Source of the DNA: a virus
Taxonomy: Duplodnaviria > Caudoviricetes
Virus record (IMG/VR): IMGVR_UViG_3300046010_010196
Span: 1 to 42,183 of that record
DNA: 42,183 nt
Reading direction: 5' to 3' (one strand)
The notes under the pieces are model-generated. The model searched no databases. It saw nothing but the letters and a program-made list of their open reading frames with translations, and was not told where the DNA came from. The position numbers and the translations under genes were made by a program. Every line of letters starts with the position of its first letter. The stretch's first letter is position 1. Shown here in pieces: positions 75 through 41,748 of this stretch.

Positions 75-458
75 ATGGTTGCGATGAGAAACGGCTCTGC
101 TGAGCATGTCGACTTTGGGTTCATGGCCGGATGGGTCGAGACCAACAAGAAGGCGATGCCGTCTAACATCGACGGAGTGATGGAGAGGAACGGATACTTT
201 CTGTTCATGGAGTGGAAGAGGGCTGGAGAGCAGGTTTCTCTCGGGCAAAGCATCCTGTTGTGCCAGCTCGCGAAGCTGGACAGGGCATTCGTCATACTCG
301 TGCACGGGCACAGTAACTCAAGCGGAAGGGAAGTGCTGGGAGTTTCTGCGATTCGTAAAGACGGCTCAGAAGAGTATCTTGGAGACGGCGAGAAGACACT
401 GCTTGAAGTAGTGCGTAAATTTTATAGCTATGCCGAGTCTAAGAATGCTGTGCACTGA
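75..458 (+). CDS. Hypothetical protein, PD-(D/E)xK nuclease-like
   Basis: SD AAGGAG at 64-69 before ATG 75; motif SNIDG...FLFMEWK...SLGQ resembles the D...ExK restriction-endonuclease-like core. Confidence 0.5.
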   Translation: MVAMRNGSAEHVDFGFMAGWVETNKKAMPSNIDGVMERNGYFLFMEWKRAGEQVSLGQSILLCQLAKLDRAFVILVHGHSNSSGREVLGVSAIRKDGSEEYLGDGEKTLLEVVRKFYSYAESKNAVH

Positions 459-1803
459 AATAGCAAGCCCCGCTCTGTGGGCGAGAAAAATATCCGGCGG
501 CAAGTTCAAGATACCTCGCCACGTTGCATACCTAGATGACGTTGTTGTAAAAGCAATCACCGGGCAAGGCCCGAATAGAATTGTCTGCTCGATGCCACCA
601 AGGCACGGAAAATCGTTCTATATTTCAGAGCACCTGCCGGCGTGGTATGCAGGAATGTTTCCAGACAATCACGTCGTGCTCACGAGTTACGAAGCAGACT
701 TCGCAGCGTCTTGGGGTGCCAAGTCACGCGACCTGTTAGCAAACTCTGAGGACAACTTGCTCGGTGTAAGGATTGACCCGCTAAAGAAAAGTGCGAACCA
801 CTGGAAGATTGACGGGCATAGGGGCGGGGTCTCGACTGCGGGAGCCGGCGGAGCTCTTACCGGAAAGGGAGCTCACCTGCTAATTATCGACGACCCTATT
901 AAGAATTCCGAGGAGGCCCAGAGCGAGACTCAGCGAAATAAACTATGGGACTGGTTCCGCTCCACGGCTTACACTCGTATTGAGCCCGGCGGAATCTGTT
1001 TAATTGTCCAGACCAGATGGAATCAGGACGACCTCGCAGGGCGTGTTATCTCCGAGCTGTCTTCCGTGGAGCCTTGGGAGGTTATCTCGTTTCCTGCTAT
1101 CGCAGAAGAGAATGACGTTCTCGGGCGAAGTGTCGGCGAGGCACTTTGGCCGGAACGAAGGCCGCTTGAGGAGCTGCTGAAGATAAAGTCAACAGTTGGC
1201 CCTTACTGGTGGAGCTCGTTGTATCAGCAGAGACCGACGCCGGCAGAGGGCGGGCTGTTCAAGCTTGAGTACTTCGAGACGTTCTACGAGAACCACCCCA
1301 AGATTAAAAAGTCTTGCAGGTTCTGGGACTTGGCCGCAACCAAGGGGACCTCTTCTGATTATACAGTTGGGCTTTTGCTTGGTATTTCAGAGGACGATAA
1401 TTTCTACGTCCTCGATGTAGTGCGAGGAAAATGGGAGCCATTCGAGCGGGACCGGGTAATCCGACAAGTCGCCGAGCTCGACGGATACGATGTAAAGATT
1501 AGAATGGAGAAGGAGCCCGGGGCGTCTGGGGAATCTCTGATTGACACTATGGGCAGAAAGCTGACGGGCTTCAACTTTCGCGGGATTCGCTCAAGGGACA
1601 GTAAAATGGCCCGGGTGAATTCAGTTGACGGCATTGCAAGTATGGCTGGAGTTGGCCGATTAAAAATCTGCAAGGGCCTTTGGACTCGCGAATTCATGGA
1701 TGAATTGGTTATGTTTCCCAATGGCACTCACGACGACCAAGTGGATTCTCTGTCTGGTGCCTACAGGGCTCTGACTCAAGAAAAGCAAGTATTCGTTGCA
1801 TAA
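430..1803 (+). CDS. terL: Terminase large subunit
   Basis: Walker A MPPRHGKS, Walker B LLIIDDP, coupling motif QTRW, nuclease motifs FWDLA, SDYT and HDDQVDS; start may be ATG 445. Confidence 0.95.
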   Translation: MPSLRMLCTEIASPALWARKISGGKFKIPRHVAYLDDVVVKAITGQGPNRIVCSMPPRHGKSFYISEHLPAWYAGMFPDNHVVLTSYEADFAASWGAKSRDLLANSEDNLLGVRIDPLKKSANHWKIDGHRGGVSTAGAGGALTGKGAHLLIIDDPIKNSEEAQSETQRNKLWDWFRSTAYTRIEPGGICLIVQTRWNQDDLAGRVISELSSVEPWEVISFPAIAEENDVLGRSVGEALWPERRPLEELLKIKSTVGPYWWSSLYQQRPTPAEGGLFKLEYFETFYENHPKIKKSCRFWDLAATKGTSSDYTVGLLLGISEDDNFYVLDVVRGKWEPFERDRVIRQVAELDGYDVKIRMEKEPGASGESLIDTMGRKLTGFNFRGIRSRDSKMARVNSVDGIASMAGVGRLKICKGLWTREFMDELVMFPNGTHDDQVDSLSGAYRALTQEKQVFVA

Positions 1804-1812
1804 GGCCAAAAG

Positions 1813-4800
1813 ATGCCGTCATCACAAGAAATCGCTGCAGCAATGGCTGCTGCGGACAAGAATAATCGCCTTGTAAAAGTAGAGCCCATCGCGAAAGAAA
1901 ACGTCAAGGCGTTTCCGGCGTTTGGAGAGAACTTCGGGCTCCGGATTGCAATGGCCGGGGCGATGCCGGGCGGATGGTCCAGCGACCACCGAAGCGAGAC
2001 AGACAAATTCAGCGGCTGGCACTATATCGCCATCCATGCAATTTACAAGCAAATCATTCAGGCGACGGTCGAGGTTTATGAACATCGGCTGACGGTCCCG
2101 AATATCAACAAGCCACCGCAACCCGCACCGGGTACACCTCCGGGGATGCCCCCGGGGATGCCGCCAGAGCAGCAACAGTTTCCGGGTGCAGCACCGCCTC
2201 CCGGGAATTTCACCAAGGGGATGAACGAGCAGGCCGATAACATGGTGCCGATGCCGAGTTACGACCCATTCCTGAAGAAGCTGAAGAAGCCCAACCCGAA
2301 CCAAACTCTAGGCTCTTTCAACGGCGAGCGAGCAATGCAGCTCTGCTTGACCGGCCGAGTACTTATCTGGAACGTCCGCTCAATCCTTACCGGCTCTATT
2401 ATCGAGCGGTATGTAATCCCAACCTGCCTTGCTTCACCTCGCCCTCCTTCGAAGGAGCTCCCGAGAGGCGGCTGGTATGTTCTGCCGGAAGGTGCAAGGT
2501 ATGCAGAAGAGGCCGGCTATTATATGGTCGGCTCCCTCGAAGCGGCTTTCGGAAAAACAATTCCCGCCGAAGACATTCAAATCATCAAGTTCCCTCACCC
2601 TCGATTCAAGGATGATGGGCAATCACCAGTCTCTGCGGGTGCTCTCTGGACAGATACTTCAGAGATGGTAGATAGGTCTCGGCACAACCATCTCAAGCAA
2701 GGTCCGGACCCGTCCGTCGTTATTGGTCTGGATGGTGACGTTGACGAGATGAGCATTCGCCGCGCGGAAGCGGCTTTTAATGACAGGTACGCCGGCCCAG
2801 AGAATCACGGCCGTGCGATGTTCGTCACTCCTACAAAGACCGTCCAGCCGCTGACCACGGCACCAAAGGACATGTCTTACGAGTCTGGATTCGAGCAGCT
2901 CCGAGACGCCCAGCTTGCCTTACACGGAGTCCCTCTTGCCGCGGTGGGCTTGTCCTCTCCTTCCGGCCGAGAAGGCTTGTACGCTCCTCTGCTGCAGTTT
3001 ATCGAGCTGTCTGTACAGCCACTGCTCACGCTCTTGGGCGAGGAGGATAGTGCTCTATTCAACACAGGCCGAGAGCACGACATCCAAATCGTGTACTCTG
3101 CAAAGAAGTTCAACGACGAAGACCTGCTAGAGAAGCAGATTCAAACCGATATCTCTGCCGGCGTTTTGACCAAGGGCGAGCTGAGAAAGCTCCGCGGTCG
3201 AGAGCTGTTTGGAGACGAGCGTGACGAAGAGATGTGCGGTGCTTCAGGTGGAGCTCCTCCGGGAATGCCGGGGATGCCGGGAATGCCGCCGGGTTTCCCG
3301 CCGGGTCAGGTGCCCGGTGCTCCGAACCAAGAAGAGCCACCCGCAGGCCAGCCGACCGTATCCAACCCAGAGCAGCAAGCTCCCGGCCAGATGCAGATGC
3401 CTATGGGCCGTGCTATGTCCTCGAACAAGCCGAGGCTTGCGGCACAAATCGCAAAGGCACTCGCAAAGCAACTGGAGGCCTACGGAATCCTAAAGGGAGG
3501 TCCGGGTTCCGGGAACCACGGTCACTCCGGTCGACCGGGTCAGGTTGGTGGCTCTGCCCCTGATGACGGTGGCGGCGGCGGAGCGGCAGGAACATCTCCC
3601 AGTTCGTCTTCACGCCCGAGGGCTGCAGCTAACCCTGCATCGGGGTCTCTAGACGAGTCCACCAGAAGGATATTGTCTCGTGCGGCTTGGAGTGCCCGCA
3701 ACGGAATCGGTGGCCAAGAAGACTTCCAGACAGCAATCCGCGACGTTATGACTCCGTCTCCTTACAGTCAAGCTCCATCGAGAGAACAGGCGGAAGCATA
3801 TTACAGGCACGAGAATGAGCTGCTGACCTCTTACAGGACTCACAGCACTGTGGGTGGGCGGAATCAGTACGCCAGAGAGCGAGCCAAAGAGACAGATAAC
3901 TTCGCAACGATATCTCACGGCGAGTCCCGCCGAATCCTGTCTGGCATGTCCGCAAACGGAGAACAAGGCTGGAAGATTGCAACTGCAATCGCTAATACCG
4001 GAGATGCAGAGCTCCTCGCAAGAGGGCTGGCTTCTTTCGGAATGGACAAGGATGCAATCGAGCAGGCCGTAAATCTAAACAATGCACTTCACGCTGGCCA
4101 AGCGAATGCAAAAGAGGTTGCTAGGTCTGCAATTGAACACGTCTCGGACGCTTCGCAAGCGGTTGGAGCCAAGAGCACACTAGAAGACCTCATTTCCGAT
4201 TTTACTACCGGCTCTGCACATAATCGCCTAAACGATATTAGCGACGTCGCTGACCCGTTCGCGGAAGCCCGAGCTCAAGCGGCCGTTGAACCGCCGGTCC
4301 GTGGCAGGGTTAATCCGTTTGACCGCGATGCAGTGACAGCAAATGCAATCGACCGTACTGAGACCGTAACAAGCGAATCTGGAATTGAGCGTAAGATTGG
4401 ACCTCGCGAAGCACCCGAGGCTATAGATGGGACTGATGTCAAAGAGACCAAGCTGATTAAAGACATCAAGGAGCGGGCCTCTAAAATCAAGGTGACCGAC
4501 GAAGAACCTATTGGTGACTTTGATGAGGACGAAGCCAGAGACAATGCCGAGCGTGATTGGGAGGGCAGTTCCGAGCAATCCTCAGCCGTTCAGGAAGAAC
4601 TCGAAAGAGGTGCTGAGAATCTTCGCCACTTCACAGCCATCCCGGACAGCTTGCCGAGCAGCGTCGGACAAATGCTTGAGGATTACTACGCAGACCTAGG
4701 AGATAGGATTGGGGACGGCGACATAAATAAAATGTCCCCGGATACTCTTGTCGAGGAGACGGAGTGGTTCTTCAGGAACAAAAAAGATGAGATAGAAAAC

Positions 4801-7320
4801 CAGCTGATAATCGCATCCAATGGAGATGGGGAGAAGCTAAAGCAGCTTCAAGAAGAGTTCTCCGACTGGAAGGACACGTCAATTCAAGAAGCTAGAGGCC
4901 AAGCAAGCAACGTCTCTGATGCAGTTTATGAGCACTACAGAGAATATGAATCTGTATACATTGACCAAGCACAGGTAGACCATGCTTCTCAGGGCGGGGA
5001 TAATATCCCTGACGAGATGACTTGGCAGAGAGGTAGCTTCAAATTCAAAACTACTTCTGGCAGTGGATACGAGATTCAAATGTCTGAGTCTACAAGGCCA
5101 TTAACTGCAAAGCAAAAACAGGAAAGCGGAAGGGACTCCATAACTGGGTACGACCTGATATTTACAGACGCAAGCGGGAGCGTTTCGATAACAGGCGAGA
5201 ACACCGAAGCGAAGAAAAAGAGCGGGCGTTCGGATGAGCTTGAAGTGTTCCGGACAGTTAGCTCGTCTGTTCTCGGTTTCATCCAAAACAAAGATGCAGA
5301 CGTCCTTACGTTTACTGCAATTGAAGAGAAGCGGCAGAAGCTCTACGACAAGCTCACGCAGACGATTGCTAGAATCGACGGCAAGTACGTTGCGGTATCT
5401 ACCGGAGGCGGGCGTAGAGCGGCTCACTACTACGTCGTGAAGCGAGAGCTCAAGCCTTACGTTGAGCAGATGATACGCGAGAAGGCAGGCAGTGCTGACC
5501 TAAAGATTGACTGGCTGGTGAAGCGGTTCCCGGGCGGGTACGTGAAGTCATCGAAGCATGGATGGGTGCAGGTCCGAGACTTCCATTTCAAAGGCGGTCC
5601 GGGTTCCGGAAACTTCGGACACGCTGGACGTCCGGGTGAAGTCGGAGGTTCCGCTCCTGACGACGGTGGCGGTGGCGGTATGGCCGGCACTTCCCCATCG
5701 GAGAAGAAAGAGAAGAAGCCTGCAGCGACAGGGAAGACAAAGAAGCCCGCCGGGAGCAAGGTTCCCAAGGCTGAGAAGGAGCCAAAAGCCAAGAAGGAAA
5801 AAGCACCGAAGGCCGAGAAGGAGAAAATCTGGCCCAAGGACTTAGAGAACCCTAGGGTTATGCAGGTTCACCCGGATGCAAAAAAAACGCACAGCCGTAC
5901 CAGTGCAATTCAAATCGACACCAAGGACATCGACAAGAAAAAAATTGACTTCTCGCCAACACACGACCTAGCAAAATGGAATAAAGAGAACGGGTACGCC
6001 CGGAAGGGCGTTGGCTCAAACATTGACCTAGTAGACTACGCCAAAGAACTAGACAAAAATTACGGAGGCCCTCCCCGTCCGCTGCTTGATGAAAAGGGCA
6101 ATATAGACGTAGAGAACGTCGAATACGCTGCACGTTCAATTGCAGATTTTGCACAAGAGGCCAAACGCAGAGACCCGAGCTGGCCTCTGTGGTACGGAGA
6201 GATAGAAGACATAACAGTCGACCTCTCCGAAGAAGAGGGCAAGTTCAACTTCTCTCCAAAGTCTAGGGAGCTTCTCCAGACCGAGTCCGGCGGAAAGATG
6301 TTTGTTAGTATTCTTGCGATGACATCGCAGGAAGGAACTCCAGACGAGAACCTGCGCTCGACGAAGAACCTCTACGACTTTTACACCGCGAACGGAAGGC
6401 TTCCAAGTCAAGCGGAAGCAGAGAAGCTTGTTGTCGGAAAAGCGGCTAAAGACGTCGCGGGCAACATGGTCAAGTACGCAAAAATCGTCGACCACTTTAA
6501 GGGCGATGTGGCCAAGGCTTTTGACTTTTTGAACGAGCCGATTCAAGCTGGCCAGCTTCAGGCGGTTATGACGAAAATCGGAGTAGAGTGTTCATCGGCT
6601 GACGCTTTCTCTAATCAATATGTCCCGAAGTCATATGTTTTTGGTCCAAAAATTGGTGCGTTCCACGCCAACCTTGGCGGCATGCCTGACTTGCTTACGC
6701 AGGACAGGTGGCTAACAAGGACAATCGGTAGAGTTACCGGTCAAATTGGGTTTACCGAAGAGCAGATTGTAAGCACATGGACAGAGGCTCTTAATTCTAA
6801 GGACGCCCCAACTGCGGAGCATGTTCGAATTGCCGGGATGAGTGCTCTAAGCATTAAGGCCGCGGTTAAGAAGTGTGCCGAAGGCGGAGAGCTAACCGAC
6901 GCTGAGTACAAAGGACTTAATCGACTAGCACAGGCTCACGTATCGAGCAGCCCTAAAAAGAAGGCAGAGAACCGGGTAATCACGCGGAACGACTTCACTA
7001 CGAAGCTCAATACCGCCATGAAGAAGATAACGACCGTCGTCGACACCCCCGGCTCTTCGATGTCTCGACACGTAAACCAGTTGGTCGCAGAGACGGCATC
7101 CAAAATTCTTACCCAGCGTGGCGAACCGATGACGGTCCGTGAAGTACAGGCTGCAATATGGATGCTTGAGAAAAAAATGTGGTACGAAGCCGGGGTCGGG
7201 AACAAGCGTGGCGGGGAGAATAGCTACAAGATGGCCCTTGAGAACCTGAGAAAGAACGGCGAACCTTCTGTCGAAGAACAGAAAAAAAGAGACCGAGAAT
7301 CAGCAAATGACGACGAATAA
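1813..7320 (+). CDS. Portal protein (N-terminal ~480 aa) fused to a ~1300 aa multidomain cargo extension
   Basis: Directly follows terL; HK97-type portal-like motifs (GQSPV, RYAGPENHGRAM, KDMSY...LR..HGVP, GVLTKGELRKLRG); then a Pro/Met linker and two GGPGSGN-tagged modules; one uninterrupted ORF. Confidence 0.85.
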   Translation: MPSSQEIAAAMAAADKNNRLVKVEPIAKENVKAFPAFGENFGLRIAMAGAMPGGWSSDHRSETDKFSGWHYIAIHAIYKQIIQATVEVYEHRLTVPNINKPPQPAPGTPPGMPPGMPPEQQQFPGAAPPPGNFTKGMNEQADNMVPMPSYDPFLKKLKKPNPNQTLGSFNGERAMQLCLTGRVLIWNVRSILTGSIIERYVIPTCLASPRPPSKELPRGGWYVLPEGARYAEEAGYYMVGSLEAAFGKTIPAEDIQIIKFPHPRFKDDGQSPVSAGALWTDTSEMVDRSRHNHLKQGPDPSVVIGLDGDVDEMSIRRAEAAFNDRYAGPENHGRAMFVTPTKTVQPLTTAPKDMSYESGFEQLRDAQLALHGVPLAAVGLSSPSGREGLYAPLLQFIELSVQPLLTLLGEEDSALFNTGREHDIQIVYSAKKFNDEDLLEKQIQTDISAGVLTKGELRKLRGRELFGDERDEEMCGASGGAPPGMPGMPGMPPGFPPGQVPGAPNQEEPPAGQPTVSNPEQQAPGQMQMPMGRAMSSNKPRLAAQIAKALAKQLEAYGILKGGPGSGNHGHSGRPGQVGGSAPDDGGGGGAAGTSPSSSSRPRAAANPASGSLDESTRRILSRAAWSARNGIGGQEDFQTAIRDVMTPSPYSQAPSREQAEAYYRHENELLTSYRTHSTVGGRNQYARERAKETDNFATISHGESRRILSGMSANGEQGWKIATAIANTGDAELLARGLASFGMDKDAIEQAVNLNNALHAGQANAKEVARSAIEHVSDASQAVGAKSTLEDLISDFTTGSAHNRLNDISDVADPFAEARAQAAVEPPVRGRVNPFDRDAVTANAIDRTETVTSESGIERKIGPREAPEAIDGTDVKETKLIKDIKERASKIKVTDEEPIGDFDEDEARDNAERDWEGSSEQSSAVQEELERGAENLRHFTAIPDSLPSSVGQMLEDYYADLGDRIGDGDINKMSPDTLVEETEWFFRNKKDEIENQLIIASNGDGEKLKQLQEEFSDWKDTSIQEARGQASNVSDAVYEHYREYESVYIDQAQVDHASQGGDNIPDEMTWQRGSFKFKTTSGSGYEIQMSESTRPLTAKQKQESGRDSITGYDLIFTDASGSVSITGENTEAKKKSGRSDELEVFRTVSSSVLGFIQNKDADVLTFTAIEEKRQKLYDKLTQTIARIDGKYVAVSTGGGRRAAHYYVVKRELKPYVEQMIREKAGSADLKIDWLVKRFPGGYVKSSKHGWVQVRDFHFKGGPGSGNFGHAGRPGEVGGSAPDDGGGGGMAGTSPSEKKEKKPAATGKTKKPAGSKVPKAEKEPKAKKEKAPKAEKEKIWPKDLENPRVMQVHPDAKKTHSRTSAIQIDTKDIDKKKIDFSPTHDLAKWNKENGYARKGVGSNIDLVDYAKELDKNYGGPPRPLLDEKGNIDVENVEYAARSIADFAQEAKRRDPSWPLWYGEIEDITVDLSEEEGKFNFSPKSRELLQTESGGKMFVSILAMTSQEGTPDENLRSTKNLYDFYTANGRLPSQAEAEKLVVGKAAKDVAGNMVKYAKIVDHFKGDVAKAFDFLNEPIQAGQLQAVMTKIGVECSSADAFSNQYVPKSYVFGPKIGAFHANLGGMPDLLTQDRWLTRTIGRVTGQIGFTEEQIVSTWTEALNSKDAPTAEHVRIAGMSALSIKAAVKKCAEGGELTDAEYKGLNRLAQAHVSSSPKKKAENRVITRNDFTTKLNTAMKKITTVVDTPGSSMSRHVNQLVAETASKILTQRGEPMTVREVQAAIWMLEKKMWYEAGVGNKRGGENSYKMALENLRKNGEPSVEEQKKRDRESANDDE
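3493..3567 (+). repeat. Peptide tag copy 1 (KGGPGSGNHGHSGRPGQVGGSAPDD)
   Basis: Read from the translation, K561 of the portal fusion. Confidence 0.95.
5590..5664 (+). repeat. Peptide tag copy 2 (KGGPGSGNFGHAGRPGEVGGSAPDD)
   Basis: Read from the translation, K1260 of the portal fusion; shares the extension GGGGGxAGTSPS with copy 1. Confidence 0.95.
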
Positions 7321-7373
7321 CCGTAGACGCAGAGAATATCTTGGATATAGTTGTGACCGGAGGGCGATAGAAA

Positions 7374-9200
7374 ATGGCTGATAAGCAACTTGAAATGGGT
7401 GAGGAGCTGGTCTTGCCGAGCATGGAGGAGGCTTTAATGGGCCTCAGCGACGTGCAGTTCGACAGCCTACTGTCGGAGCTGTTTAAGCTTTACGAGAAAG
7501 GCACGGGTCCAAAGTCTTTTGCCGGCCAGACTCCTTGGTTTGGCCACAAGAAGAAGTTTACCGGCTTCACAAAGGCCGAAGAGAAGGTCGACCAGTGCGG
7601 TGCCGGCTCTTCCGGCGGTGGCGGTTTCGAGCCCGGCAACACTTGTGCCGCAGGAGGCTCTGGGGGCTCTTCTGAAGCCGGGTCGGCTTCTGGCGGGTCA
7701 GACGCCGCACCTAAGCAAGAAAACGCGGCAGCGGGCAAGCCAGCGGCCTCTAGCGGGGCTGCAGGCGATAAGCCTAAGCCCGAGCGGTGGAACGTGGAGA
7801 AGGACATCCCGACGGCCGCTAAAGAGGGGGGGTTTACTTTTCACCCCAAGTCTGGCAAGTCTCCAACCACCGGCTTTGCCGTTTCAATCTTCCCAGAGCA
7901 CGAGCGTATTCTGGACTTGGAAAATGTCACTCAAGACGAGATGGACAAGTACCGGGAAGACACTCGGTCAGCTTGGGAGGGTGACCCGAGGGTACATCTA
8001 GGGGGGTGGCACAACGTCGGGGAGGACGGGAAGTTCTACTTGGACGCTTCGAAGATTGTGGACACCAAGGAGGAGGCTATCGCACTCGGCAAGGAGCACG
8101 GCCAGCTTGCGGGTTATGACGTGGAGCGGGGCGAGGTGTTCCAGATTAGCACTCGCGAAGAGCGGGACGAGTATCAGCGAAAGAAGACGGAGCTTGCGAC
8201 TGGCCAGATTCGACAGGAGAAGACTACTCCGACAGCGAACGGGGCAAATGCCTACAATCCTTACGTAGAAGCAGACAACGACGGAGACGGTATAACCGAT
8301 GCTTCCCGGGTTGGCATTGGAGGGCGAGATGTTGTCCCGCCACCAGAGGTTCCTAGAATGCCGAACCTCACGAAAGAGGAGCGGAGAGTCGAAGAGCGGT
8401 TTGCTCGTACGTTTGAGATGTATCCTCAAGAAATGGCGGACGCTTACACCGAGATGGTGAAGAACTCGGAGAAGCCAAACACATTCGAAACAGATGGAGC
8501 GAAGCTGATGTCCTCTGCGTGGAACGACTCGGACGATAACATACAAGCTGAGAAGCGTGGCCGATACAATGTCGCACTTCACCAGACCGCAAATGCAATT
8601 GCAAAGAGAGCTTTCACGGACTACGTCTCCAAGCTACCTCCGGGCTCAGAGATTCTTGTCACCGTAGGCGGGTGCGGTGCCGGGAAGGGCTACGCCTTAA
8701 AACAAATCCCGTCCGTTGCTGGCCTATCGAAATCTTCCGCCGCTGTGTGGGATTCCGCTGGAGACCAGAACGGAACGGAGAGTCCTTGGATTCAAGACCT
8801 AGCTGAGCTACACGGGCACAAGGTCACGTACGCATACATCCACAACGACCCGTACAGGCAGTGGGCAGACCCGGGCCGGGGTGTCGTAAAAAGGGCGAAC
8901 GACCCAGCTGATGGCCGGATGGTCGACGCCTCTGTGTTCGCTGACTCGTACGCAATCGGGGCGAAGAACTTTGCAGCGTTCAAAGAAACGCACAAGGACA
9001 ACCCAAACGTAAAGTTTGTGATTATCGACTCTACAGGGAAAAAGCCGAAGCAAGTGAACGAACTGCCGCCAGCTGCACTTCAGGTAGACCGAAAGCACCT
9101 GACGCAGTTTGCTGCTTCGACTGTTGCGAATCGGGGCGTTGCTCCGCGTGTTAAAAGAGGGGCTCTTGTTGGTGCACGAATTTGGAAGGAAAACGAATGA
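7374..9200 (+). CDS. Multidomain putative head cargo protein with a C-terminal zeta-toxin-like P-loop kinase
   Basis: SD GGAGG; Gly-rich CGAGSSGGGGFEPGNTC motif; middle domain GGFT..SGKSPTTGFAVS...LGGW...YLD; P-loop VTVGGCGAGKG (8667-8690) and downstream KRA...GRMV lid-like motif. Confidence 0.7.
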   Translation: MADKQLEMGEELVLPSMEEALMGLSDVQFDSLLSELFKLYEKGTGPKSFAGQTPWFGHKKKFTGFTKAEEKVDQCGAGSSGGGGFEPGNTCAAGGSGGSSEAGSASGGSDAAPKQENAAAGKPAASSGAAGDKPKPERWNVEKDIPTAAKEGGFTFHPKSGKSPTTGFAVSIFPEHERILDLENVTQDEMDKYREDTRSAWEGDPRVHLGGWHNVGEDGKFYLDASKIVDTKEEAIALGKEHGQLAGYDVERGEVFQISTREERDEYQRKKTELATGQIRQEKTTPTANGANAYNPYVEADNDGDGITDASRVGIGGRDVVPPPEVPRMPNLTKEERRVEERFARTFEMYPQEMADAYTEMVKNSEKPNTFETDGAKLMSSAWNDSDDNIQAEKRGRYNVALHQTANAIAKRAFTDYVSKLPPGSEILVTVGGCGAGKGYALKQIPSVAGLSKSSAAVWDSAGDQNGTESPWIQDLAELHGHKVTYAYIHNDPYRQWADPGRGVVKRANDPADGRMVDASVFADSYAIGAKNFAAFKETHKDNPNVKFVIIDSTGKKPKQVNELPPAALQVDRKHLTQFAASTVANRGVAPRVKRGALVGARIWKENE

Positions 9201-9571
9201 GCAGCGGATTTAACTTCGGCGACAATACGGAACCGATGCAGGGCGAGGGAATGCAGGGCGGAGAGATGCAGGGCGAGGCACCCTCACCAGAAGAGCTTTC
9301 GTTCGACGACGCGGAACGGCAGCACTATCGCAACCTTGCAGGGCAAGCCCGAAACAATCCGTTCTTTGTCCAGTGCGATGAAGAGATTTTCGAGCTCAAC
9401 GACGATGGCTCCGAGCGGGTCCACGGAAAGAAGGACAAGCCTGAAAACAAAGAAGCTCCAGAGGGCGAGCTTGCTGATGAGCAGGTCGCTACTGATGGGG
9501 ACTCCGAAGAAGAGCAGAGCCCGGAAGAAGACGGCGACACCTACACGGACATCGACGACGAGGACTTTTAA
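9197..9571 (+). CDS. Highly acidic small protein, candidate inhibitor/antitoxin
   Basis: ATGA overlap with the upstream stop; very Asp/Glu-rich; contains a 3x MQGxx tandem repeat (9236-9277). Confidence 0.6.
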   Translation: MSSGFNFGDNTEPMQGEGMQGGEMQGEAPSPEELSFDDAERQHYRNLAGQARNNPFFVQCDEEIFELNDDGSERVHGKKDKPENKEAPEGELADEQVATDGDSEEEQSPEEDGDTYTDIDDEDF

Positions 9572-12500
9572 TGCACTGGCTAGGATTGCTTAAGGGCGGG
9601 CCCGGTTCCGGGAACTTTGGTCATGCCGGCCGTCCGGGCGAGGTTGGTGGCTCTGCTCCTGACGGAGAGCAAGGCTCTGGTGAGTCTAGCTCGAAGGTTC
9701 GCCAATGGGCTGAGAGTAAATTCAAGGACAAGGAAAAGGCAGACAGCTTTTCCAGTTGGTTTAGAGGTTCAAAGGTCACAAGCGATAGCGGCGAACCGCT
9801 GACGGTGTACCACGTAACAACCGAGGACTTCGAAGAATTCGACCCCAAGATGGGTGCTCAGGGCGTGGTCTGGTTTACCTCAAACAAAGAGAAGATTAAC
9901 AGCAGCGAAACCGGTGCATCGCTGAGGCCGGGAAAAACTCCGCGGATAATTGAAGCTCACCTGTCAATCCAGAAGATGGCCGGCTGGGATGAGTATGAGA
10001 AGTACAGCCTTGACGAGCTTGAAAGCCAAGGTTACGACGGGGTCAAACTCGACGACGACTACATCATCTTCGAAGCTAATCAAGTGAGGCAGGTAAAGCC
10101 AGAAGCAGAAGGCTCGGGCAAGTCGAGCCCGAAGGTTCGCCAATGGGCGGAGGAGAAGTTTAAGGACAAGCAGACCGCTGAGAACTTCGTGCGGTGGTTC
10201 GGTGATTCTAAGGTGGTCGACAAGGACGGAAACCCGCTGAGGGTGTTTCACGGAACCACTGAGAATTTTGAAGAATTTGATACTTCGATTAGATTGACAG
10301 ATGGTCGCGACCGTGCCGCGTTCTTCTCGGATTCTGAGATAGTTGCTGCTTCTTACACAGAACACCAGCCTCTCGAAGAAAAGAAAAGAATGACAGAGGC
10401 GGAAAACTTGAGGGCTGAGCTTGAGTCAGAATACGACAGGCTGACCGGCGACCTTCCGCCCGAAAGAGAAAACGCTTTTATTCATGCGATTAACAACGCA
10501 GAGGGTGTTTCGGTTGATGAAGCGAACCGCCTAATCGACATGCGTGACCGTCTTGAGAAACTAGAAAGCGGGCTTGATTTAGAAGAAAGTGCGGCACTTT
10601 ATGATTCAAAAAAACCGCAGATGAAGGCGGTATACCTCTCGCTGCAGAATCCGTACATTAGCGACTCAAAGGGAGGCAGAAGTGATTGGACGGTTCCAAC
10701 GATACTCCAGAAAGTAGACCGTTCAAAGCACGACGGGATTATTTTTAGAAACATTGTGGACACTGGAGATGGAACAAACACAGTCTCGACGGTTTATGCC
10801 GTGTTCTCGCCGACCTCTATCAAGTCAGCCATCGGCAACTCAGGGACGTTCGACCCCGACAATCCGAACATCACCAAGAGCCATAAGGGGTTCCATCAAT
10901 GGATGAGTCTCGTAAAAGGATTCACCCCGGATAGTTCTAAAATCGCAAAGTCTGTCGATAGAATTGAGGCGATGACTCTGGAGTGCTTGCGGCATATCAA
11001 GGGCGGTCCGGGCTCTGGCAACTTTGGTCACGCCGGGCGTCCCGGCCAAGTCGGCGGCTCTGCCCCTGATGACTCTCCTTCTAGCAGCTCATCGGCTCCG
11101 AAGGATGTACCGAAAGCCCCGGCCGAACCCCGGGACACAGACTTGGTCACGCTCGGAAAGTACGATGACCCGGTCGACGTTACTGGCAAGCGAAGGGTAA
11201 CCCTGTTTCACTACTCCTCTGACGACAGAAGCGATTCTGGACTTCAGCGGAAGTACGCTGGAACGGCCGGTGCCGGAGAAGAGAAACGCTCATTCGAATA
11301 CGACAAAGAAGGGAAGCTGATAGAAGAGTCTGCACCGATTCACGCTTATATGTATGGTGCCAAAAGAGAATCAATGGTCCCGGGCAAGGTTCTACACCGG
11401 ATAGATACCGAGCTTAATGTAATCGACGTCACCAGCAAGGAGTATGCAGACATTCTTGCAGAGGCACAGAAAGAGGCAGAGAAGACCGGCCGGCCTATGC
11501 TTGCGATGGCTCGGGTAATTACGAGACAACGCGGCTACGACGCCCTCGCGAGCACCAGAGACGGTATCGTGCAAATCCTGAGAGACGTAAGCCCTGCTGA
11601 GCTGGAGACAGTCGGCAAGAAAGGTGCTTCCACTAAAATTGGATACACTCCGAAGCCACCAGCAGACAGTGATTACGTTGACGAATACAAGAGACGGTGG
11701 GAGACAAAGATAAGCAACCTAGCCAAAGAGAAGCCAGAGGTCGAAATATATTCGCTGAACAACGGTGCGGACGTTATGGTGAATATGGGGCTTCTCAGCA
11801 AGGAAGACAGACACGCAGTTGTTGGAAACCTAGTCGGAAGAGAGCTGACCTTAGAAAAAGTAAACGCCACTGTCGATGAGCTTATAAGCAAGATTCCAAA
11901 GTCTGCACGAGAGAAGGATGTCGAGTACATAAAAAACTACTGGAAGTACGCAATCGTAGCAGGAAAAAGCAAAGAAGAGATTCAGGCGAACATAGAAGAG
12001 CAGCAACGGAACCTGCTGAAAAATGTAAACAATCGGGTTGCTGTTCGCGTACCGCTTGAGTTTGTTGATAGCGTGATTAAGGACGGCCGTCTAAAGTCGC
12101 AATTCGAAACCGGAGAATCAAAGGGTGCACTGGACCCGCAACTCCGAAGAAACGTGGAGTACAACGGCTTTGGAGTGCCGAGAGACCATCCAGCGGACAA
12201 GAGGCCCATTTACGGGTACATGGCAGACGAGTCCGCCAGCATGCACAACACCACGCTTGAATACTACGGCGGCATCGCCTTGATTATGAAAGATGAAGTC
12301 AAGGAGCGGTCTACGGTCACCTTCGGCGACTCTTTGGACAACGGCCTGCCGGCAAGCGATATAAAATCTCCGAGCCTCACTTCGATGAGAGTTGTTGAAG
12401 GTGTTCTCGATGAGGATAGCTTTACTTACATCGAGGCACAGCTGCACGGAGGGGTTAGCATCGACGACGTGAAAGAGGTTGTGATTAACGAGTTTACGAT

Positions 12501-12759
12501 GAGAAAAATCATCAAGTCATACTCTCTTATCCCAGCAAGCGAAAATTCGAAACTGCCTTTTGGCAACTTCGACCGCGGCGGAAGGCTTCTTAGCAGTGAC
12601 TTAAAAATATCAGTCTGCTCGATTAACAAGCGTGGGGAGCCCGGAGTTGTAAGGACCTTGGAAGACTGGATTGAGTCTAGCGATTACAAGAACACACACT
12701 GGGACACCCCAGAGGGTCGAGTTTTTGCAGAGAAAGTGAGGAAGAGAAGTGGAAGATAA
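9571..12759 (+). CDS. Polyvalent protein with two ART-PolyVal-like ADP-ribosyltransferase domains and a C-terminal DUF3626-like domain
   Basis: Two WFxxSKV.D..G.PL.V(Y/F)H.T...F.EFD units ending in GYDG or HDGII and IKSAIGNSGTFDP; C-terminal LKSQFETG..RPIYGY..YG..ERSTVTFGDSL..YIEAQLHG; two GGPGSGN tags. Confidence 0.8.
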   Translation: MHWLGLLKGGPGSGNFGHAGRPGEVGGSAPDGEQGSGESSSKVRQWAESKFKDKEKADSFSSWFRGSKVTSDSGEPLTVYHVTTEDFEEFDPKMGAQGVVWFTSNKEKINSSETGASLRPGKTPRIIEAHLSIQKMAGWDEYEKYSLDELESQGYDGVKLDDDYIIFEANQVRQVKPEAEGSGKSSPKVRQWAEEKFKDKQTAENFVRWFGDSKVVDKDGNPLRVFHGTTENFEEFDTSIRLTDGRDRAAFFSDSEIVAASYTEHQPLEEKKRMTEAENLRAELESEYDRLTGDLPPERENAFIHAINNAEGVSVDEANRLIDMRDRLEKLESGLDLEESAALYDSKKPQMKAVYLSLQNPYISDSKGGRSDWTVPTILQKVDRSKHDGIIFRNIVDTGDGTNTVSTVYAVFSPTSIKSAIGNSGTFDPDNPNITKSHKGFHQWMSLVKGFTPDSSKIAKSVDRIEAMTLECLRHIKGGPGSGNFGHAGRPGQVGGSAPDDSPSSSSSAPKDVPKAPAEPRDTDLVTLGKYDDPVDVTGKRRVTLFHYSSDDRSDSGLQRKYAGTAGAGEEKRSFEYDKEGKLIEESAPIHAYMYGAKRESMVPGKVLHRIDTELNVIDVTSKEYADILAEAQKEAEKTGRPMLAMARVITRQRGYDALASTRDGIVQILRDVSPAELETVGKKGASTKIGYTPKPPADSDYVDEYKRRWETKISNLAKEKPEVEIYSLNNGADVMVNMGLLSKEDRHAVVGNLVGRELTLEKVNATVDELISKIPKSAREKDVEYIKNYWKYAIVAGKSKEEIQANIEEQQRNLLKNVNNRVAVRVPLEFVDSVIKDGRLKSQFETGESKGALDPQLRRNVEYNGFGVPRDHPADKRPIYGYMADESASMHNTTLEYYGGIALIMKDEVKERSTVTFGDSLDNGLPASDIKSPSLTSMRVVEGVLDEDSFTYIEAQLHGGVSIDDVKEVVINEFTMRKIIKSYSLIPASENSKLPFGNFDRGGRLLSSDLKISVCSINKRGEPGVVRTLEDWIESSDYKNTHWDTPEGRVFAEKVRKRSGR
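9592..9663 (+). repeat. Peptide tag copy 3 (KGGPGSGNFGHAGRPGEVGGSAPD)
   Basis: Begins at residue 8 of the 1062 aa ORF. Confidence 0.95.
10999..11073 (+). repeat. Peptide tag copy 4 (KGGPGSGNFGHAGRPGQVGGSAPDD)
   Basis: K477 of the 1062 aa ORF. Confidence 0.95.
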
Positions 12760-12979
12760 GCGCAAGCTCGGAAGGGTAATCGCCCGCCGAGGCTCGGATG
12801 CCTTGAGTGTCTCGCGAGAGGCTGGCGGAAAAAGATACGGATACATCGTCTTCGGAGACGGCTCTGTATCGGAAGAGGTCAACGTGGACTCGGTTATCTC
12901 TCGCGGGTACTGGTCTCCGGTCTCTGGCTCTGAAGCACTCAAAAGCTACATCAAGGCACTGGAAAATGGACCCGGCTAA
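12749..12979 (+). CDS. Small hypothetical protein, candidate immunity partner of the DUF3626-like domain
   Basis: GTG start with GAGG upstream, overlaps the upstream stop and fills the gap to the MuF start; protein-like composition (VDSVISRGYW). Confidence 0.55.
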   Translation: MEDKRKLGRVIARRGSDALSVSREAGGKRYGYIVFGDGSVSEEVNVDSVISRGYWSPVSGSEALKSYIKALENGPG

Positions 12980-13583
12980 CAGACGAGAGCACGAGTCCGA
13001 CATGATGCGGCTAATCGGTGCAATTGCCGAAAGGTGCGGGCAGTCGAAGACAAAGGAGGGCATGTTCGATTGCATCGAACTGTTCGACCTTGAGAGCAAG
13101 ATGTTGGACATCTCACAGGAGGCCTACGAGGCTCTCTTGGTGCAGCTAAGCATTCGGGCTATGCCAAGGATGCCGCAGGAGCTAGTGCGAACTCTGTTTA
13201 TTGAATTCGCAGACAGGGCCGCGGAGCTCGCGATAGAGGGGAAGATAAACGAGGCTTGGGTGTCGGTCGCGGCAGTGACTATGACTACAAAGCTCTGGAG
13301 TATCGGAGAGTCTCTCGCGGTAGACCACGCAAGAACTAGATTCACCCAGTACACGCCGCACACCAAAGCGTTTCAAGGGATTCCTGTCGAACTACTTCGA
13401 AGTGCAACCCGGATGAAGATTGTTTCCATATGGAAGGCCGAAGCGGATGCCTGTGAAATTTGCAAATTCCTAGAGAACAACGTGATTGAGTACATCGCCT
13501 ACGACGGCCCGCCGGCTCACCCAAACTGCAGGTGCTGGGTCGATTACTCGGTCGAGGCAGCTGGAGTGGAAGAGCCCGAATGA
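12966..13583 (+). CDS. MuF / SPP1 gp7-like minor head protein (short form)
   Basis: C-terminal W....DACEIC..L......GPPAHPNCRC signature; start placed at ATG 12966 rather than 12807. Confidence 0.8.
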   Translation: MDPANRREHESDMMRLIGAIAERCGQSKTKEGMFDCIELFDLESKMLDISQEAYEALLVQLSIRAMPRMPQELVRTLFIEFADRAAELAIEGKINEAWVSVAAVTMTTKLWSIGESLAVDHARTRFTQYTPHTKAFQGIPVELLRSATRMKIVSIWKAEADACEICKFLENNVIEYIAYDGPPAHPNCRCWVDYSVEAAGVEEPE

Positions 13584-14285: not shown

Positions 14286-15743
14286 GTGGCTAACAATTCA
14301 AATCTAAACGGCGTGTTTTCTAACCCAACAGTGGGAACCGTCTTTGAGGTCGACACGGCAAAGATGTCTGCTTCGGCAATCATCTCTACCCCAGCAGTAG
14401 ACCGTGTTGGGGACTCAATGGACCCGCTCGGGTGCGACCTTACACAATACCGCCTGAACCCGGTTGTGTTCTGGAACCACGCTTTTGATGGGTTTACAAA
14501 GCCTATCGGTATCTCCGAGAACAGCTCTGGAGAGCTCCAGATTTTCCCGTCTGGCGAGAACATCAAGGCGACCTGCTATTTCACGAACAAGTTTCTCGAA
14601 GCCGAGCAGATTTTCGACCTTGTAAACGAAAAAACTATTCGGGCAACCTCGATTCGGTTCGACCCAATTGGCTCTCCCTCGCGGTCCGGCGGGGTCCAGC
14701 GATTCTCTAAATGGTATCTTTTAGAGTGGAGTTGGGTGCCGATTGGTTGTAATCCTGAGGCGGTACAGCAGGTGCTTGCAAAGGGGTATCTTGCCGGCCG
14801 GCGTATTTCGAGTGGGATTACAAAGTCTCTGGAGTTGTTGCTTCCGGAGAAGAAACTGCAAATTGCTGGTTACAACTTTAAGAAAGATGCTAAAATGCGT
14901 TTCGTTAAATCGTGCGATGACAACAAAAAGTGCAATTGCGACAAAGACCCGCTCGGCGGCGAAGTGAAGATGACCAACGATAAAGAACGACCAGAAGACG
15001 CTCCACCGCCGGGAACAAAGCCGGCTCCGATGCCGCCATCTTCCGGTTATTCGTCGGCTCCTCCTGCAGCAGGCAAGACTCCACCCCCGGGCGGAAAGGT
15101 TCCTCCCCAGAGCGGAAGGGTTCCTCCCCAGAGCGGCAAGCCGGGCGAAGAGGAATATAAAGGCAACATGGACGAAGAGTCCGAGTCAGAAGACATTGCA
15201 GGGGACGGCGAGGAAGCAGAGACTCCAAAGGCTTACGGAGCACAGCTCGTCGAGGCCGCTTACAACGCACTCAACGAGGTCCGGGTAAACATCAAGGAAG
15301 GCTCTGTAGCACTTGAGCACCCAGAAATCGAAGCCTTGATTGCAACCACTCTCGAAGCTCTCGGAATGATGATGAGCGAAGTGGAAGCAGCTTACGCCAA
15401 GTCATACGTCCGGAACCCAAAATACAACTACTCTCCGCTTGCCAGCTCCGGACGTCGTCTGGATTGGCACGACAACCTCAAGTCATTTTTGGCTGGAGGC
15501 GCGAGCAATCGGTTTGCTGTTAGCGGAATTGCTGAGCGAATCCGTAGCGTTGCAAAGTCCGGCACAGTTAGCGGCCGCGAAGCCGACGTATTGAAGTCTT
15601 GTGCAACACAATTGCAAGGGTTCGTAGAATCTGCTCGTTCCAACGTGAGGCACGAGAGCAATGGTGTTGTCGGTGACAGGCTTGAGTCTATCACTAAATC
15701 TTCGGATGCCACGTTGGCCATCCTGAAGAACATGAAACGCTAA
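14286..15743 (+). CDS. HK97-family prohead protease with a C-terminal scaffold-like extension
   Basis: STPAVDRVGD, NPVVFWNH...PIG, SIRF, LLEWSWVPIGCNPEA; Pro-rich, acidic and helical C-terminal half; lies directly upstream of the capsid gene. Confidence 0.9.
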   Translation: MANNSNLNGVFSNPTVGTVFEVDTAKMSASAIISTPAVDRVGDSMDPLGCDLTQYRLNPVVFWNHAFDGFTKPIGISENSSGELQIFPSGENIKATCYFTNKFLEAEQIFDLVNEKTIRATSIRFDPIGSPSRSGGVQRFSKWYLLEWSWVPIGCNPEAVQQVLAKGYLAGRRISSGITKSLELLLPEKKLQIAGYNFKKDAKMRFVKSCDDNKKCNCDKDPLGGEVKMTNDKERPEDAPPPGTKPAPMPPSSGYSSAPPAAGKTPPPGGKVPPQSGRVPPQSGKPGEEEYKGNMDEESESEDIAGDGEEAETPKAYGAQLVEAAYNALNEVRVNIKEGSVALEHPEIEALIATTLEALGMMMSEVEAAYAKSYVRNPKYNYSPLASSGRRLDWHDNLKSFLAGGASNRFAVSGIAERIRSVAKSGTVSGREADVLKSCATQLQGFVESARSNVRHESNGVVGDRLESITKSSDATLAILKNMKR

Positions 15744-15764: not shown

Positions 15765-17045
15765 ATGTCCAGCATTGAAAACAAGTTGCAGGCTGTTGAA
15801 AAGACTCAAGCCGCCATCTTGGAACACTTGAAGAGTCTTGACACCCCTAACTACCGCGTTGTTGGCGGAGACGGTGGAACCACTGTCTCTTACATCGAAG
15901 ACGGCGGACCGAACGACGTTGTTCGAATCGACAACTTGTGGGCTCGCGGTGAGAACACCGTAAAGAACTACCGCAAGAACGCTTACCTGCCCGGCTACAA
16001 GGGCGCGAAGGAAGGCGGCTTCAAGAGCTTCGGCGACTTCTTGCTTAGCGGTCTTCGTGACTCGAAGACAGCTGACTGGCAAAACCGTCACGCTAACTGC
16101 TTCAAGGCAGTTCAAGGTATGTCGGTTGGTGCCGCTGAAGACGGCGGGTACATGGTTCAGCCAGAGTACTCCGACAAGGTTCTGGAGCGAGTTTACAACA
16201 ACAAGCTGTTCTCGATGACGGACAATTACACCGTCTCGGGCAACAACCTTGTGTTCATGCGAAACGCTGAAACCTCGCGGGCCAATGGTTCTCGCAAGGG
16301 TGGCATTCGTGGTTACTGGCTCGGTGAAGGCGCAAGCGGAACCAAGTCAGCTCCAAAGATGCGGCAAGTTCAGCTCCGCCTGAAGAAGCTCTGCATTATC
16401 GTTTACCTCACCGAAGAGCTCATCCAAGACGGCGGCTCTGCTGTCCAGAGCTATGTCGAAAAGTGTGCTGCTGAAGAATTCAATTTCATGATTGGCGACG
16501 CACTGTTTAACGGCACTGGTGTAGGCCAGCCTCTCGGCTTGCTCAACTCCGGCTCGCTGGTGACTGTCACCAAGGAATCGGGCCAAGCTGCTACGACTAT
16601 CAACGCAGCAAACATCGACAAGATGTGGGCTCGTCGATACGCTGCTGCTGACGGATACAGCTGGTTCCACAACCAAGACTGCGGTCCTCAGCTCGACAGC
16701 CTGTCTCAGTCGATTGGCACTGCAGGTATCGCACTCTACCGGCCGAACACTGGTCTGGCTGGCGTTGCTCCTCAGATGCTGAAGACTGCACCTCGCGTTG
16801 AAACGGAATTCAATGCAGCTGTCGGAACCGTGGGTGACTTGGTTCTTGCCGACTTCAGCCAGATTCTGTCGATTGCAAAGGGTGGCGTCTCGCAGATGGC
16901 TTCGACTCACGTCGAGTTCTTGACCGACCAGACCGCCTTGAAATTTACGATGCGTCTCGACGCTCGTCCTTGGGATGACACTGCAATGACCCCTTATAAG
17001 GGCAGTGCAACTCAGTCCAGCTTCGTCTGTCTCGAAACTCGCTAA
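15765..17045 (+). CDS. Major capsid protein, HK97 fold
   Basis: FKA...DGGYMVQPEY, LTEELIQD, FNGTGVGQPLGLLN, LVLADFS, F.TDQTA.KFTMRLDARP. Confidence 0.95.
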   Translation: MSSIENKLQAVEKTQAAILEHLKSLDTPNYRVVGGDGGTTVSYIEDGGPNDVVRIDNLWARGENTVKNYRKNAYLPGYKGAKEGGFKSFGDFLLSGLRDSKTADWQNRHANCFKAVQGMSVGAAEDGGYMVQPEYSDKVLERVYNNKLFSMTDNYTVSGNNLVFMRNAETSRANGSRKGGIRGYWLGEGASGTKSAPKMRQVQLRLKKLCIIVYLTEELIQDGGSAVQSYVEKCAAEEFNFMIGDALFNGTGVGQPLGLLNSGSLVTVTKESGQAATTINAANIDKMWARRYAAADGYSWFHNQDCGPQLDSLSQSIGTAGIALYRPNTGLAGVAPQMLKTAPRVETEFNAAVGTVGDLVLADFSQILSIAKGGVSQMASTHVEFLTDQTALKFTMRLDARPWDDTAMTPYKGSATQSSFVCLETR

Positions 17046-39807: not shown

Positions 39808-40479
39808 ATGAAGTGGTTTACTGGGATTATCATTGCCCTTTTCTGTACCGTCTTGAATGCTCAGATTGACGTCAAGGCTCCAGAGCAGTCTCCCCTGAGT
39901 TCTCTGGTTTACATTACCCTGAGCGATGGCGGTTTCGATACCGTCGACCTTGAAATCTGGGCTGGAGAGCAGGAGGTCAAGTTCGAGGAAATCGTTTCTG
40001 CCTCTCCCGGCTCGAAGACTTACGTATTCACCGGACCTGCTGGAAGCTACACTGTTCGGGCTTTTGGCTGGTCGGCTGGAAAGAAGCCTGAGAAGTACCG
40101 AGGTAAGATTATCATTGGCGGAGACTCCCCGCCGACACCTCCGGGACCTCCCGCCCCTGATGTTTTAGAGGGCCTTGCTGGTATCTCCCGGGCTCAGGCC
40201 TTGAAGGTTTTCAGCGTGGCACGAGGCGAAGAGGCGGCTAAAATCGCCGAGGTTTACTTGGGTGCAGCGGCACGGGCTGCGGCACTTCCGGGCTTTACCG
40301 CCAAGGACATGACAAACGCAGTGCGAGAAGGGCTTGCCGATTTCGGGGAGTCTGAGAAGAAGAGCTGGGGCCAGTGGGCCGAAGCCATCGCTGCTGAGTT
40401 GAACAAACTCCCGCCAGACCGCGAGAAGTACATCGAAGCTTATCAGCAGATTGCCAAAGGCCTAGAGGGGGTCAAGTAA
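39808..40479 (+). CDS. Exported hypothetical protein (beta domain, Pro linker, helical domain)
   Basis: Signal peptide MKWFTGIIIALFCTVLNA; FTGPAGSYTV; PPTPPGPPAP linker. Confidence 0.7.
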   Translation: MKWFTGIIIALFCTVLNAQIDVKAPEQSPLSSLVYITLSDGGFDTVDLEIWAGEQEVKFEEIVSASPGSKTYVFTGPAGSYTVRAFGWSAGKKPEKYRGKIIIGGDSPPTPPGPPAPDVLEGLAGISRAQALKVFSVARGEEAAKIAEVYLGAAARAAALPGFTAKDMTNAVREGLADFGESEKKSWGQWAEAIAAELNKLPPDREKYIEAYQQIAKGLEGVK

Positions 40480-41393: not shown

Positions 41394-41403
41394 GGGATTT
41401 GAG

Positions 41404-41748
41404 ATGATGAAAGCCCTAGTACTTCTGCTGATGTATGCTGCGGGTGCTGATTTCGTGGAGTACGATAAGTGGCATTCGTCTGAGAAGAAAGACGGCCGGC
41501 ACTATGTCTTGGTCTCTGCTGAGTGGTGCCCACCCTGCAAGAAGCTGAAGGAGCGACTTAGGGGTGACGAGTATTCAGGGGAGAAGATTATCATTCTCGA
41601 TGTAGATAAGCACCCCGAGCTATCCAAGAAAGTTCTTCGGGGTCGAGGAATCCCGACGATGATTGAGTACAACCTCTCGGGCGGTGAATGGAAGCCGGCT
41701 CGCTACTGGGACGGAGCTGACTTGAACAAATTTCTGCGAGGAGAATAA
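41404..41748 (+). CDS. Exported thioredoxin-like protein
   Basis: Signal-like N-terminus; SAEWCPPCK; LDVDKHPEL; GIPT cis-Pro motif. Confidence 0.88.
   Translation: MMKALVLLLMYAAGADFVEYDKWHSSEKKDGRHYVLVSAEWCPPCKKLKERLRGDEYSGEKIIILDVDKHPELSKKVLRGRGIPTMIEYNLSGGEWKPARYWDGADLNKFLRGE

Follow-up and report, generated by a model that had tools for sequence, protein, structure and literature searches.

The stretch of DNA analysed here, referred to below as the window, covers the 42,183 nucleotides of IMG/VR virus record IMGVR_UViG_3300046010_010196 (Duplodnaviria; Caudoviricetes), a record that is 50% complete and holds the head and tail module of an HK97-type tailed phage. Its portal gene and a downstream cargo gene carry four in-frame, plus-strand copies of a short peptide with the consensus K-GGPGSGN[FH]GH[AS]GRPG[EQ]VGGSAPD, a lysine followed by 23 glycine-rich residues, which we call the tag. 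The genes, modules and tag copies that concern us are listed below by window position, with open reading frames abbreviated as ORFs.

430 to 1803, plus strand: terminase large subunit, given for context.
1813 to 7320, plus strand: portal protein of 1835 residues, consisting of an HK97-type core (residues 151-462) and two tag-led modules (562-1260 and 1261-1835).
3493 to 3564, plus strand: tag copy 1, in the portal ORF at K561/G562, at the end of the portal core; the Lys of GILK is the predicted P1 residue.
5590 to 5661, plus strand: tag copy 2, at K1260/G1261 (FHFK/GGPGSG), separating the two portal-fused modules.
7374 to 9200, plus strand: ORF of 608 residues, carrying a sister tag and then a P-loop-like GGCGAGKG.
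9571 to 12759, plus strand: cargo polyprotein of 1062 residues, with ART-PolyVal (PF18760) in module 9-477 and DUF3626 in module 478-1062.
9592 to 9663, plus strand: tag copy 3, in the 1062-residue ORF at K8/G9, behind the leader MHWLGLLK.
9595 to 11001, plus strand: module of 469 codons bounded by tags 3 and 4 and missing from the relative L048.
10999 to 11070, plus strand: tag copy 4, in the 1062-residue ORF at K477/G478 (RHIK/GGPGSG).
12807 to 13583, plus strand: divergent MuF-like head morphogenesis protein, with weak matches.
14286 to 15743, plus strand: HK97-type head maturation protease with a scaffold-like tail and an invariant His and Ser, the predicted tag cutter.
15765 to 17045, plus strand: HK97-family major capsid protein, with a predicted maturation junction at CFK114/AVQGMSVG (Lys codon at 16104-16106).

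Consistent with the original prediction, which held that the tag is conserved as protein and not as DNA and that selection acts on the peptide, the copies differ mostly at synonymous positions. The four codon strings it quoted are exact and only three residues vary over 24 codons (F/H, A/S and E/Q); its span of 3493 to 11073 takes in, at the end, a 25th codon that is unconserved (D/D/G/D). In pairwise comparison over the 24 codons, DNA identity is 54-58 of 72 bases versus a protein identity of 21-24 of 24 residues, and 15 synonymous differences separate copies 2 and 3, whose peptides are identical. Among the 26 variable DNA columns, 22 are third, three first and one second codon positions (binomial p 1e-7). 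When the four copies are pooled, the proportions of synonymous (pS) and nonsynonymous (pN) differences are 0.654 and 0.042, respectively (pN/pS 0.064), with Fisher p values of 2e-4 to 1e-11 across the six copy pairs, which are not independent of one another. This codon-level comparison, of the dN/dS type, reveals an excess of synonymous change, and we conclude that the tag peptide is under purifying selection. A repeat conserved at the DNA level, whether CRISPR-like, att or regulatory, does not describe the tag, with its pS of 0.65 and exact DNA runs common to the copies of 9-16 bases at most; synonymous sites are near saturation. In a pattern census of the record, GGxGSG sites are exactly the four tags, against zero in the control.

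Each tag opens a module: residues 562-1260 and 1261-1835 of the portal protein and 9-477 and 478-1062 of the polyprotein. The first portal module has a weak DUF6934 match, and the second (5593-7320, plus strand) is DUF7178-like, scoring 0.93-0.94 against viral DUF7178 clusters by language-model features. These four modules, two in the portal and two in a polyprotein that is likely packaged into the head, are unrelated to one another. The leader MHWLGLL-K of the polyprotein is as originally described; GAGGA precedes its ATG, which shares bases with the TAA upstream. A hydrophobic residue followed by Lys precedes all four tags, as it does the predicted capsid junction and the sister tag of the 608-residue ORF, and four further hydrophobic-Lys-small motifs lie upstream of copy 4, at residues 436-460. 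The sister tag, CGAGSSGGGGFEPGNTCA (7596-7649, plus strand), starts eight residues past K67, which belongs to the only hydrophobic-Lys-small motif of that ORF.

To place the tag in a wider context, we scanned IMG/VR with a degenerate pattern, which returned at least 171 stretches. A further 24 pattern matches lie in bacterial or archaeal genome contigs, mostly of Clostridia, including Lachnospiraceae records with the exact tag, but also of other bins, among them ones named Sulfuricaulis, Terriglobus and Dehalococcoidia. Once loci that shared a contig or came from near-identical viruses had been merged, the sample comprised at least 327 tags and 91 virus groups among the matches listed. A profile built from 278 canonical tags reads GGPGSGNFGHxGRPGxVGGS, with Asn7, His10, Arg13 and Pro14 kept in 94-100% of them across unrelated proteases, although part of this conservation comes from the search pattern, which in part dictates positions 1-10; all four Gly codons occur at each of the nine Gly positions of these related tags. 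Tags co-occur with at least five capsid families, and certain proteases bear the tag in their own tail. Queries this short and glycine-rich are insensitive: 90 tags gave one chance match in Pfam (E 0.28), and the tag gave none in the PDB at E 10. AlphaFold2 predicts no fold for it (predicted local distance difference test, pLDDT, 62; no secondary structure). Searches of the literature by motif and by concept yielded no description of the tag, with the caveat that motifs present only in figures or supplements would escape them. By blastn there were partial matches only (E 0.2-7), and the lack of a tblastn match in cultured phages is uninformative owing to low-complexity masking. As an observation on its composition, Gly recurs at every third residue within positions 6-20 (6, 9, 12, 15 and 18), which fits a polyproline-II or collagen-like strand, and its GRP core is, we presume, reminiscent of AT-hooks.

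The residue that directly precedes Gly1 varies among phages and is shared within them. The 63 groups that have at least two tags give 832 within-virus tag pairs, and the residue is the same in 624 of these (75%) even though the cargo differs, compared with a mean of 19.5% and a maximum of 24.8% in 2000 shuffles; when residue classes are merged post hoc (L/A/F and N/H/Q/Y/M), 805 of the 832 pairs agree. Family searches of 49 records recovered DUF2213 (strongly in 14, weakly in 11), Peptidase_S78 (in five) and an HK97-type profile (in eight), and local profiles assign a protease in 49 of the 91 groups, the other 42 being mostly fragments. Asp precedes 59 of 59 tags in DUF2213 groups (21 groups, 10 of them outside the profile-building set), and Lys precedes 47 of 47 in HK97-type protease groups (nine groups, window included). 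In a divergent DUF2213 branch Leu or Ala precedes 76 of 80 tags (14 groups; of the nine outside the training set, four had already been seen in the earlier family search). XkdF groups have Lys (3/3), Mu-type groups Leu (9/9) and phrog_760 groups a mixture of Asn, His, Gln, Tyr, Met and Asp (13 tags). Judged from these sequences, the residue before the tag is phage-specific and tracks the head-protease family. The PHROG family phrog_595, which is labelled a protease, matches MuF proteins (PF04233) and was not counted as one. We also observed a Glu class: Glu precedes all 14 tags in three groups (L225, L051 and L223), as I/L/F-x-E in most, and family searches assigned no head protease to it, phrog_24776 of G033 also being present in a Leu/Phe record and G043 having a ClpP-like gene.

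Major capsid proteins offer a second view of the same specificities. Capsid leaders end in Asp in the Asp class (10/10), in R-x-Leu/Ala in the Leu/Ala class (9/9) and in V-T-Asn, at the homologous column, in two of two further cases, and Lys stands at the leader end in three of five aligned HK97-type capsids, the window's among them. The preceding residue thus agrees with both protease family and capsid junction, as expected of a head-protease substrate, a correspondence that is confounded with lineage. Published data allow some of these junctions to be compared with mature proteins. The N-terminus of the phage TLS capsid protein determined by Edman degradation is ASDMGIW according to the accessible part of PMC11447400, and in the TLS capsid gene (L284, 5088-5190) this sequence comes right after Asp27; TLS encodes DUF2213 together with a PF09950 capsid protein, which aligns with the Asp class at the junction. 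Likewise, the T1 capsid model begins at residue 27 in the available text of PMC11945409, and this residue follows Asp26, which aligns with the Asp-class junction. The TLS data suggest that DUF2213 proteases cut after Asp. For the HK97-like phage phi12 system, PMC8569155 reports, in the portion available, cuts after Arg128 and Lys87, and the accessible portions of PMC9942802, PMC10457771 and PMC11445458 give no residue-level cut site.

In a further class of viruses the tag sits directly at the start codon. Across G036, G050, G051 and G052, 20 of 21 tags directly follow ATG or TTG, one follows Met-Val and none is internal, and a ribosome-binding-like sequence lies upstream of most of them. G036, which has a separate scaffold and came from the unbiased scan, contributes eight tags after ATG or TTG, its ninth being the one after Met-Val; the others contribute three of three (G050), four of four (G051) and five of five (G052). 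An ATG-plus-tag search returned 21 loci, of which seven are real (four records counting G036) and the rest chance matches. Two further pattern matches in G050 proved to be one repeated non-tag stretch, and in L234 and L045 the Met ahead of the tags is internal and no start codon. G051 combines a PF14265 scaffold with a leaderless P22-type coat that aligns from residue 1, and only small ORFs lie between its MuF and scaffold. Family and profile searches found no protease family in any of the four records, a weak negative. Methionine aminopeptidase takes off Met before Gly, as stated in the available part of PMC10052503, so the start-codon and protease routes would yield the same free Gly end. 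The original proposal of a need for a processed N-terminus is thus backed from three sides, namely the match between residue and protease, the match at capsid junctions and start-codon placement where no protease was detected. Of the start-codon tags in G050, one heads an Alt-like ADP-ribosyltransferase and another a protein with a weak GNAT match. Separately, at least five ADP-ribosyltransferase-like genes adjoin a minor head protein in this 186-kb virus (L271, 812-8181, minus strand).

Tags also mark the boundary of a gain or loss of cargo. In the relative L048, whose terminase and portal are 91% and 69% identical to those of the window, the leader and tag of copy 3 are followed directly by the module that follows tag 4 in the window. 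Its leader DNA matches copy 3 at 20 of 24 bases versus 10 of 24 for copy 4, and the downstream DNA has 70 matches to copy 4 versus 42 to copy 3 over 117 columns. A 469-codon ADP-ribosyltransferase (ART) module has therefore been gained or lost at tags, in a single case that lies at a contig end, and to this extent a search of related genomes bears out the earlier suggestion that cargo is swapped at the tag. This event and the predicted lack of structure could indicate that the tag is no more than a flexible linker suited to the protease, which also offers a homology patch where cargo modules can be shuffled. We consider this improbable: four non-glycine positions are nearly invariant across unrelated proteases, with the pattern-imposed share noted above; the tag persists at N-termini, which leave nothing to be linked or cut; and the short identical runs and near-saturated synonymous sites show that DNA homology is not selected.

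The reading that we prefer, and regard as reasonably likely as a whole, is that the tag is exposed as a free end by cutting and serves the retention or ejection of head cargo. Polyproteins would enter the prohead through fusion to the portal or protease, or through their leader or tag. The head protease would then cut according to its own specificity, in the window after the Lys ahead of each copy, so that each freed module starts with a free Gly-Gly-Pro-Gly-Ser-Gly end. Following maturation, the free tag would hold the module with the packaged genome and lead it through the tail at ejection. The parts of this chain differ in strength. Cleavage at the tags by the head protease is highly probable, packaging of the unfused tagged proteins scarcely less so, and the tag's role probably requires a free N-terminus; as for the role being ejection or retention, the balance tips just slightly in favour. 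Placement of the main role after the cut is suggested by the portal- and protease-fused modules, which need no address and yet keep the tag in register. That DNA is the universal partner of the tag is a guess. MuF, detected in 41 of 51 tag-bearing records and in eight of 12 near-complete ones, is a candidate reader; a co-fold of MuF with the tag from locus L060 scored 0.01.

A different reading, which we judge unlikely though worth weighing, is that the tag serves as an address for packaging into the prohead and does so uncut and at internal positions, the cut only separating modules into pieces of ejectable size. The unfused 1062-residue ORF and the Met-tag proteins need an address and share no element other than the tag, T4 employs a short peptide for this purpose (in the accessible text of PMC9958956), and the MuF protein found in most tag-bearing records is portal-bound. 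On the other hand, an internal address needs no exact register to a predicted cut or Met, which is what nearly all tags show, and the tag is retained on portal- and protease-fused modules. Its carriers differ in capsid, portal and scaffold families, and four of the 12 near-complete records have no PF04233 match. Register also bears on the idea that the freed Gly-Gly is a chemical acceptor, joining modules to a virion or host component by transpeptidation or modification: Gly1-Gly2 is invariant and in exact register, and variants retain GGxGSG while altering what comes next, a pattern for which sortase would, we assume, be the analogy. We hold this to be very improbable, given that sister tags begin several residues past the predicted cut and that the carriers were not noticed to share a ligase-like gene, although no systematic search was made.

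Several observations weigh against retention or ejection by a cut-exposed tag. Lineage confounds protease class: in a quick version of the protease tree every class consists of one or a few clades, so that the independent contrasts number about six to eight and not hundreds. The 42 groups without an assignable protease include the three Glu groups and several Lys groups, four of the 80 tags in the Leu/Ala class are exceptions, and the phrog_760 class is loose. Two viruses (L030 and L058) have Asn versus Asp before their tags even though their candidate protease genes are 90% identical, and for this reason we rejected the pair as a case of residue and protease switching together. Extra cut-like motifs are just 1.5-2.3 times as frequent upstream of tags as downstream. 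The capsid junctions were chosen after the tags had been seen, two of the five HK97-type capsids lack Lys at the aligned place, and the TLS authors surmised another site, with 45 residues removed (accessible part of PMC11447400). No tag was found in what was examined of T1, nor any GGxGSG tag in 20 kb of TLS, 33 kb of FP_Brigit and 30.5 kb of MaInes. With respect to the start-codon class, G050, G051 and G052 were selected by the ATG-plus-tag search itself, G051 and G052 have three genes in common, with three of their tags shared, and the records are 60-90% complete; the XkdF protease of G031 likewise escaped the A1 profile. Stand-alone Met-tag proteins share no other signal, which suits a packaging role. 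Finally, cleavage, packaging and delivery of tagged proteins are all steps that we infer.

Comparison with known systems is limited here to the parts of the cited papers that were available. The capsid targeting sequence (CTS) of T4, with gp21 processing of IPI-III and Alt (PMC9958956), resembles the tag in being a short peptide common to unrelated head-internal proteins, tied to a head-protease site, with cargo that includes an ADP-ribosyltransferase-type domain. The CTS is N-terminal and about 10 residues long, and gp21 removes small N-terminal peptides, whereas the tag lies after the predicted P1 residue, stays on the cargo and often occurs inside polyproteins (562, 1261 and 478). Further, gp21 is an S77 protease that cuts after Glu, while the window's protease is HK97-type with Lys before the tags, and the tag spans unrelated protease and capsid families and persists where no protease was detected. 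Polyvalent and portal-, MuF- or peptidase-fused effectors (PMC5512222, PMC9503650) are multi-domain head-module proteins of the same kind, ART-PolyVal among them, that are proposed to be packaged and injected; their processing is ascribed to built-in zincin metallopeptidases, and the available text names no inter-module tag or head-protease code. The window likewise has disparate effector domains in one chain within a portal-terminase module (PF18760 and PF12294, with a portal fusion), as in Iyer 2017, and this gene context leads us to infer packaging and injection of its polyvalent-like proteins. In SPN3US gp245 and phiKZ-type processing (PMC10052503), the head protease cuts one A-x-E motif in portal, capsid and ejection proteins, as in our proposal, but conservation lies on the P side, N-terminal propeptides are removed and the accessible text mentions no long prime-side peptide that is conserved. 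SPP1 gp7/MuF (PMC6316719) is a non-essential head protein that the portal directs to the procapsid, and it bears fused cargo and aids the start of infection; it is a folded domain of about 300 residues, in contrast to the 20-residue tag, and MuF is present in most tag-bearing records. The T4-like logic and polyvalent portal-fused cargo are known; what the present analysis contributes is the match to protease and capsid, the start-codon class and the module swap.

Outside T4, P1 and a few giant phages, little is settled about the way in which long-tailed phages choose their head-internal proteins and eject them, and a peptide at the new end of cargo modules provides a handle on this question. 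The tag also provides a way to recognise, by sequence, enzymes injected for host takeover and anti-defence, it gives predicted specificities for uncharacterised head proteases (Asp for DUF2213, with backing from the TLS Edman data), and it suggests that large portal fusions are precursors and not final products. A broader and more tentative proposal, which we would put at somewhat below even, is that one portable N-terminal export signal for virion cargo, activated by the head protease, is common to tailed phages of unrelated head lineages. Loaded polyproteins would be cut after Lys, Asp, Leu/Ala, Asn/His or Glu, depending on the protease at hand, and the same 20-residue tag would guide every freed module into the host; phages that have no protease would place it at the start codon. 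If so, injected effectors could be recognised by the tag in any genome, head-protease specificity could be read from sequence and the tag would be usable as a delivery handle.

A number of further features of the window and its relatives came to light. The ART module contains an internal duplication (9680-9800 and 10120-10290, plus strand) of the form SSKVRQWAE.KFKDK..A..F..WF..SKV....G.PL.V.H, which corresponds to two ART-PolyVal-like units; an insertion interrupts the second of them. A small, very acidic ORF (9200-9571, plus strand) sits between the cargo genes, is 46% identical in L048 and is possibly a chaperone or scaffold-like protein. In the 608-residue ORF, the P-loop-like GGCGAGKG (8660-8700, plus strand) is followed by DSAGDQ, has no Pfam match and presumably resembles zeta-toxin-type kinases. 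Its sister tag belongs to a second tag type, CGAG..GGGF[EQ]PGNTCA (7572-7649, plus strand), which occurs in 11 IMG/VR stretches and eight distinct contexts, mostly a few residues past Lys-Ala/Ser, and whose two Cys could form a disulfide. Other interchangeable tags occupy the same kind of position, namely GHxFxGNQ, NPxHDxxGRF, HPRDENGQF and WxTxNGxH (L288/G052, L227, L229 and L285/FP_Brigit portal), and in G052 GGxGSG is fused to GHxFxGNQ. In the portal of FP_Brigit (MG711465) the residue before the sister tag is Asp. Lastly, a late cluster at 39808-41748 (plus strand) includes ORFs that appear, by eye, papain-like and thioredoxin-like.

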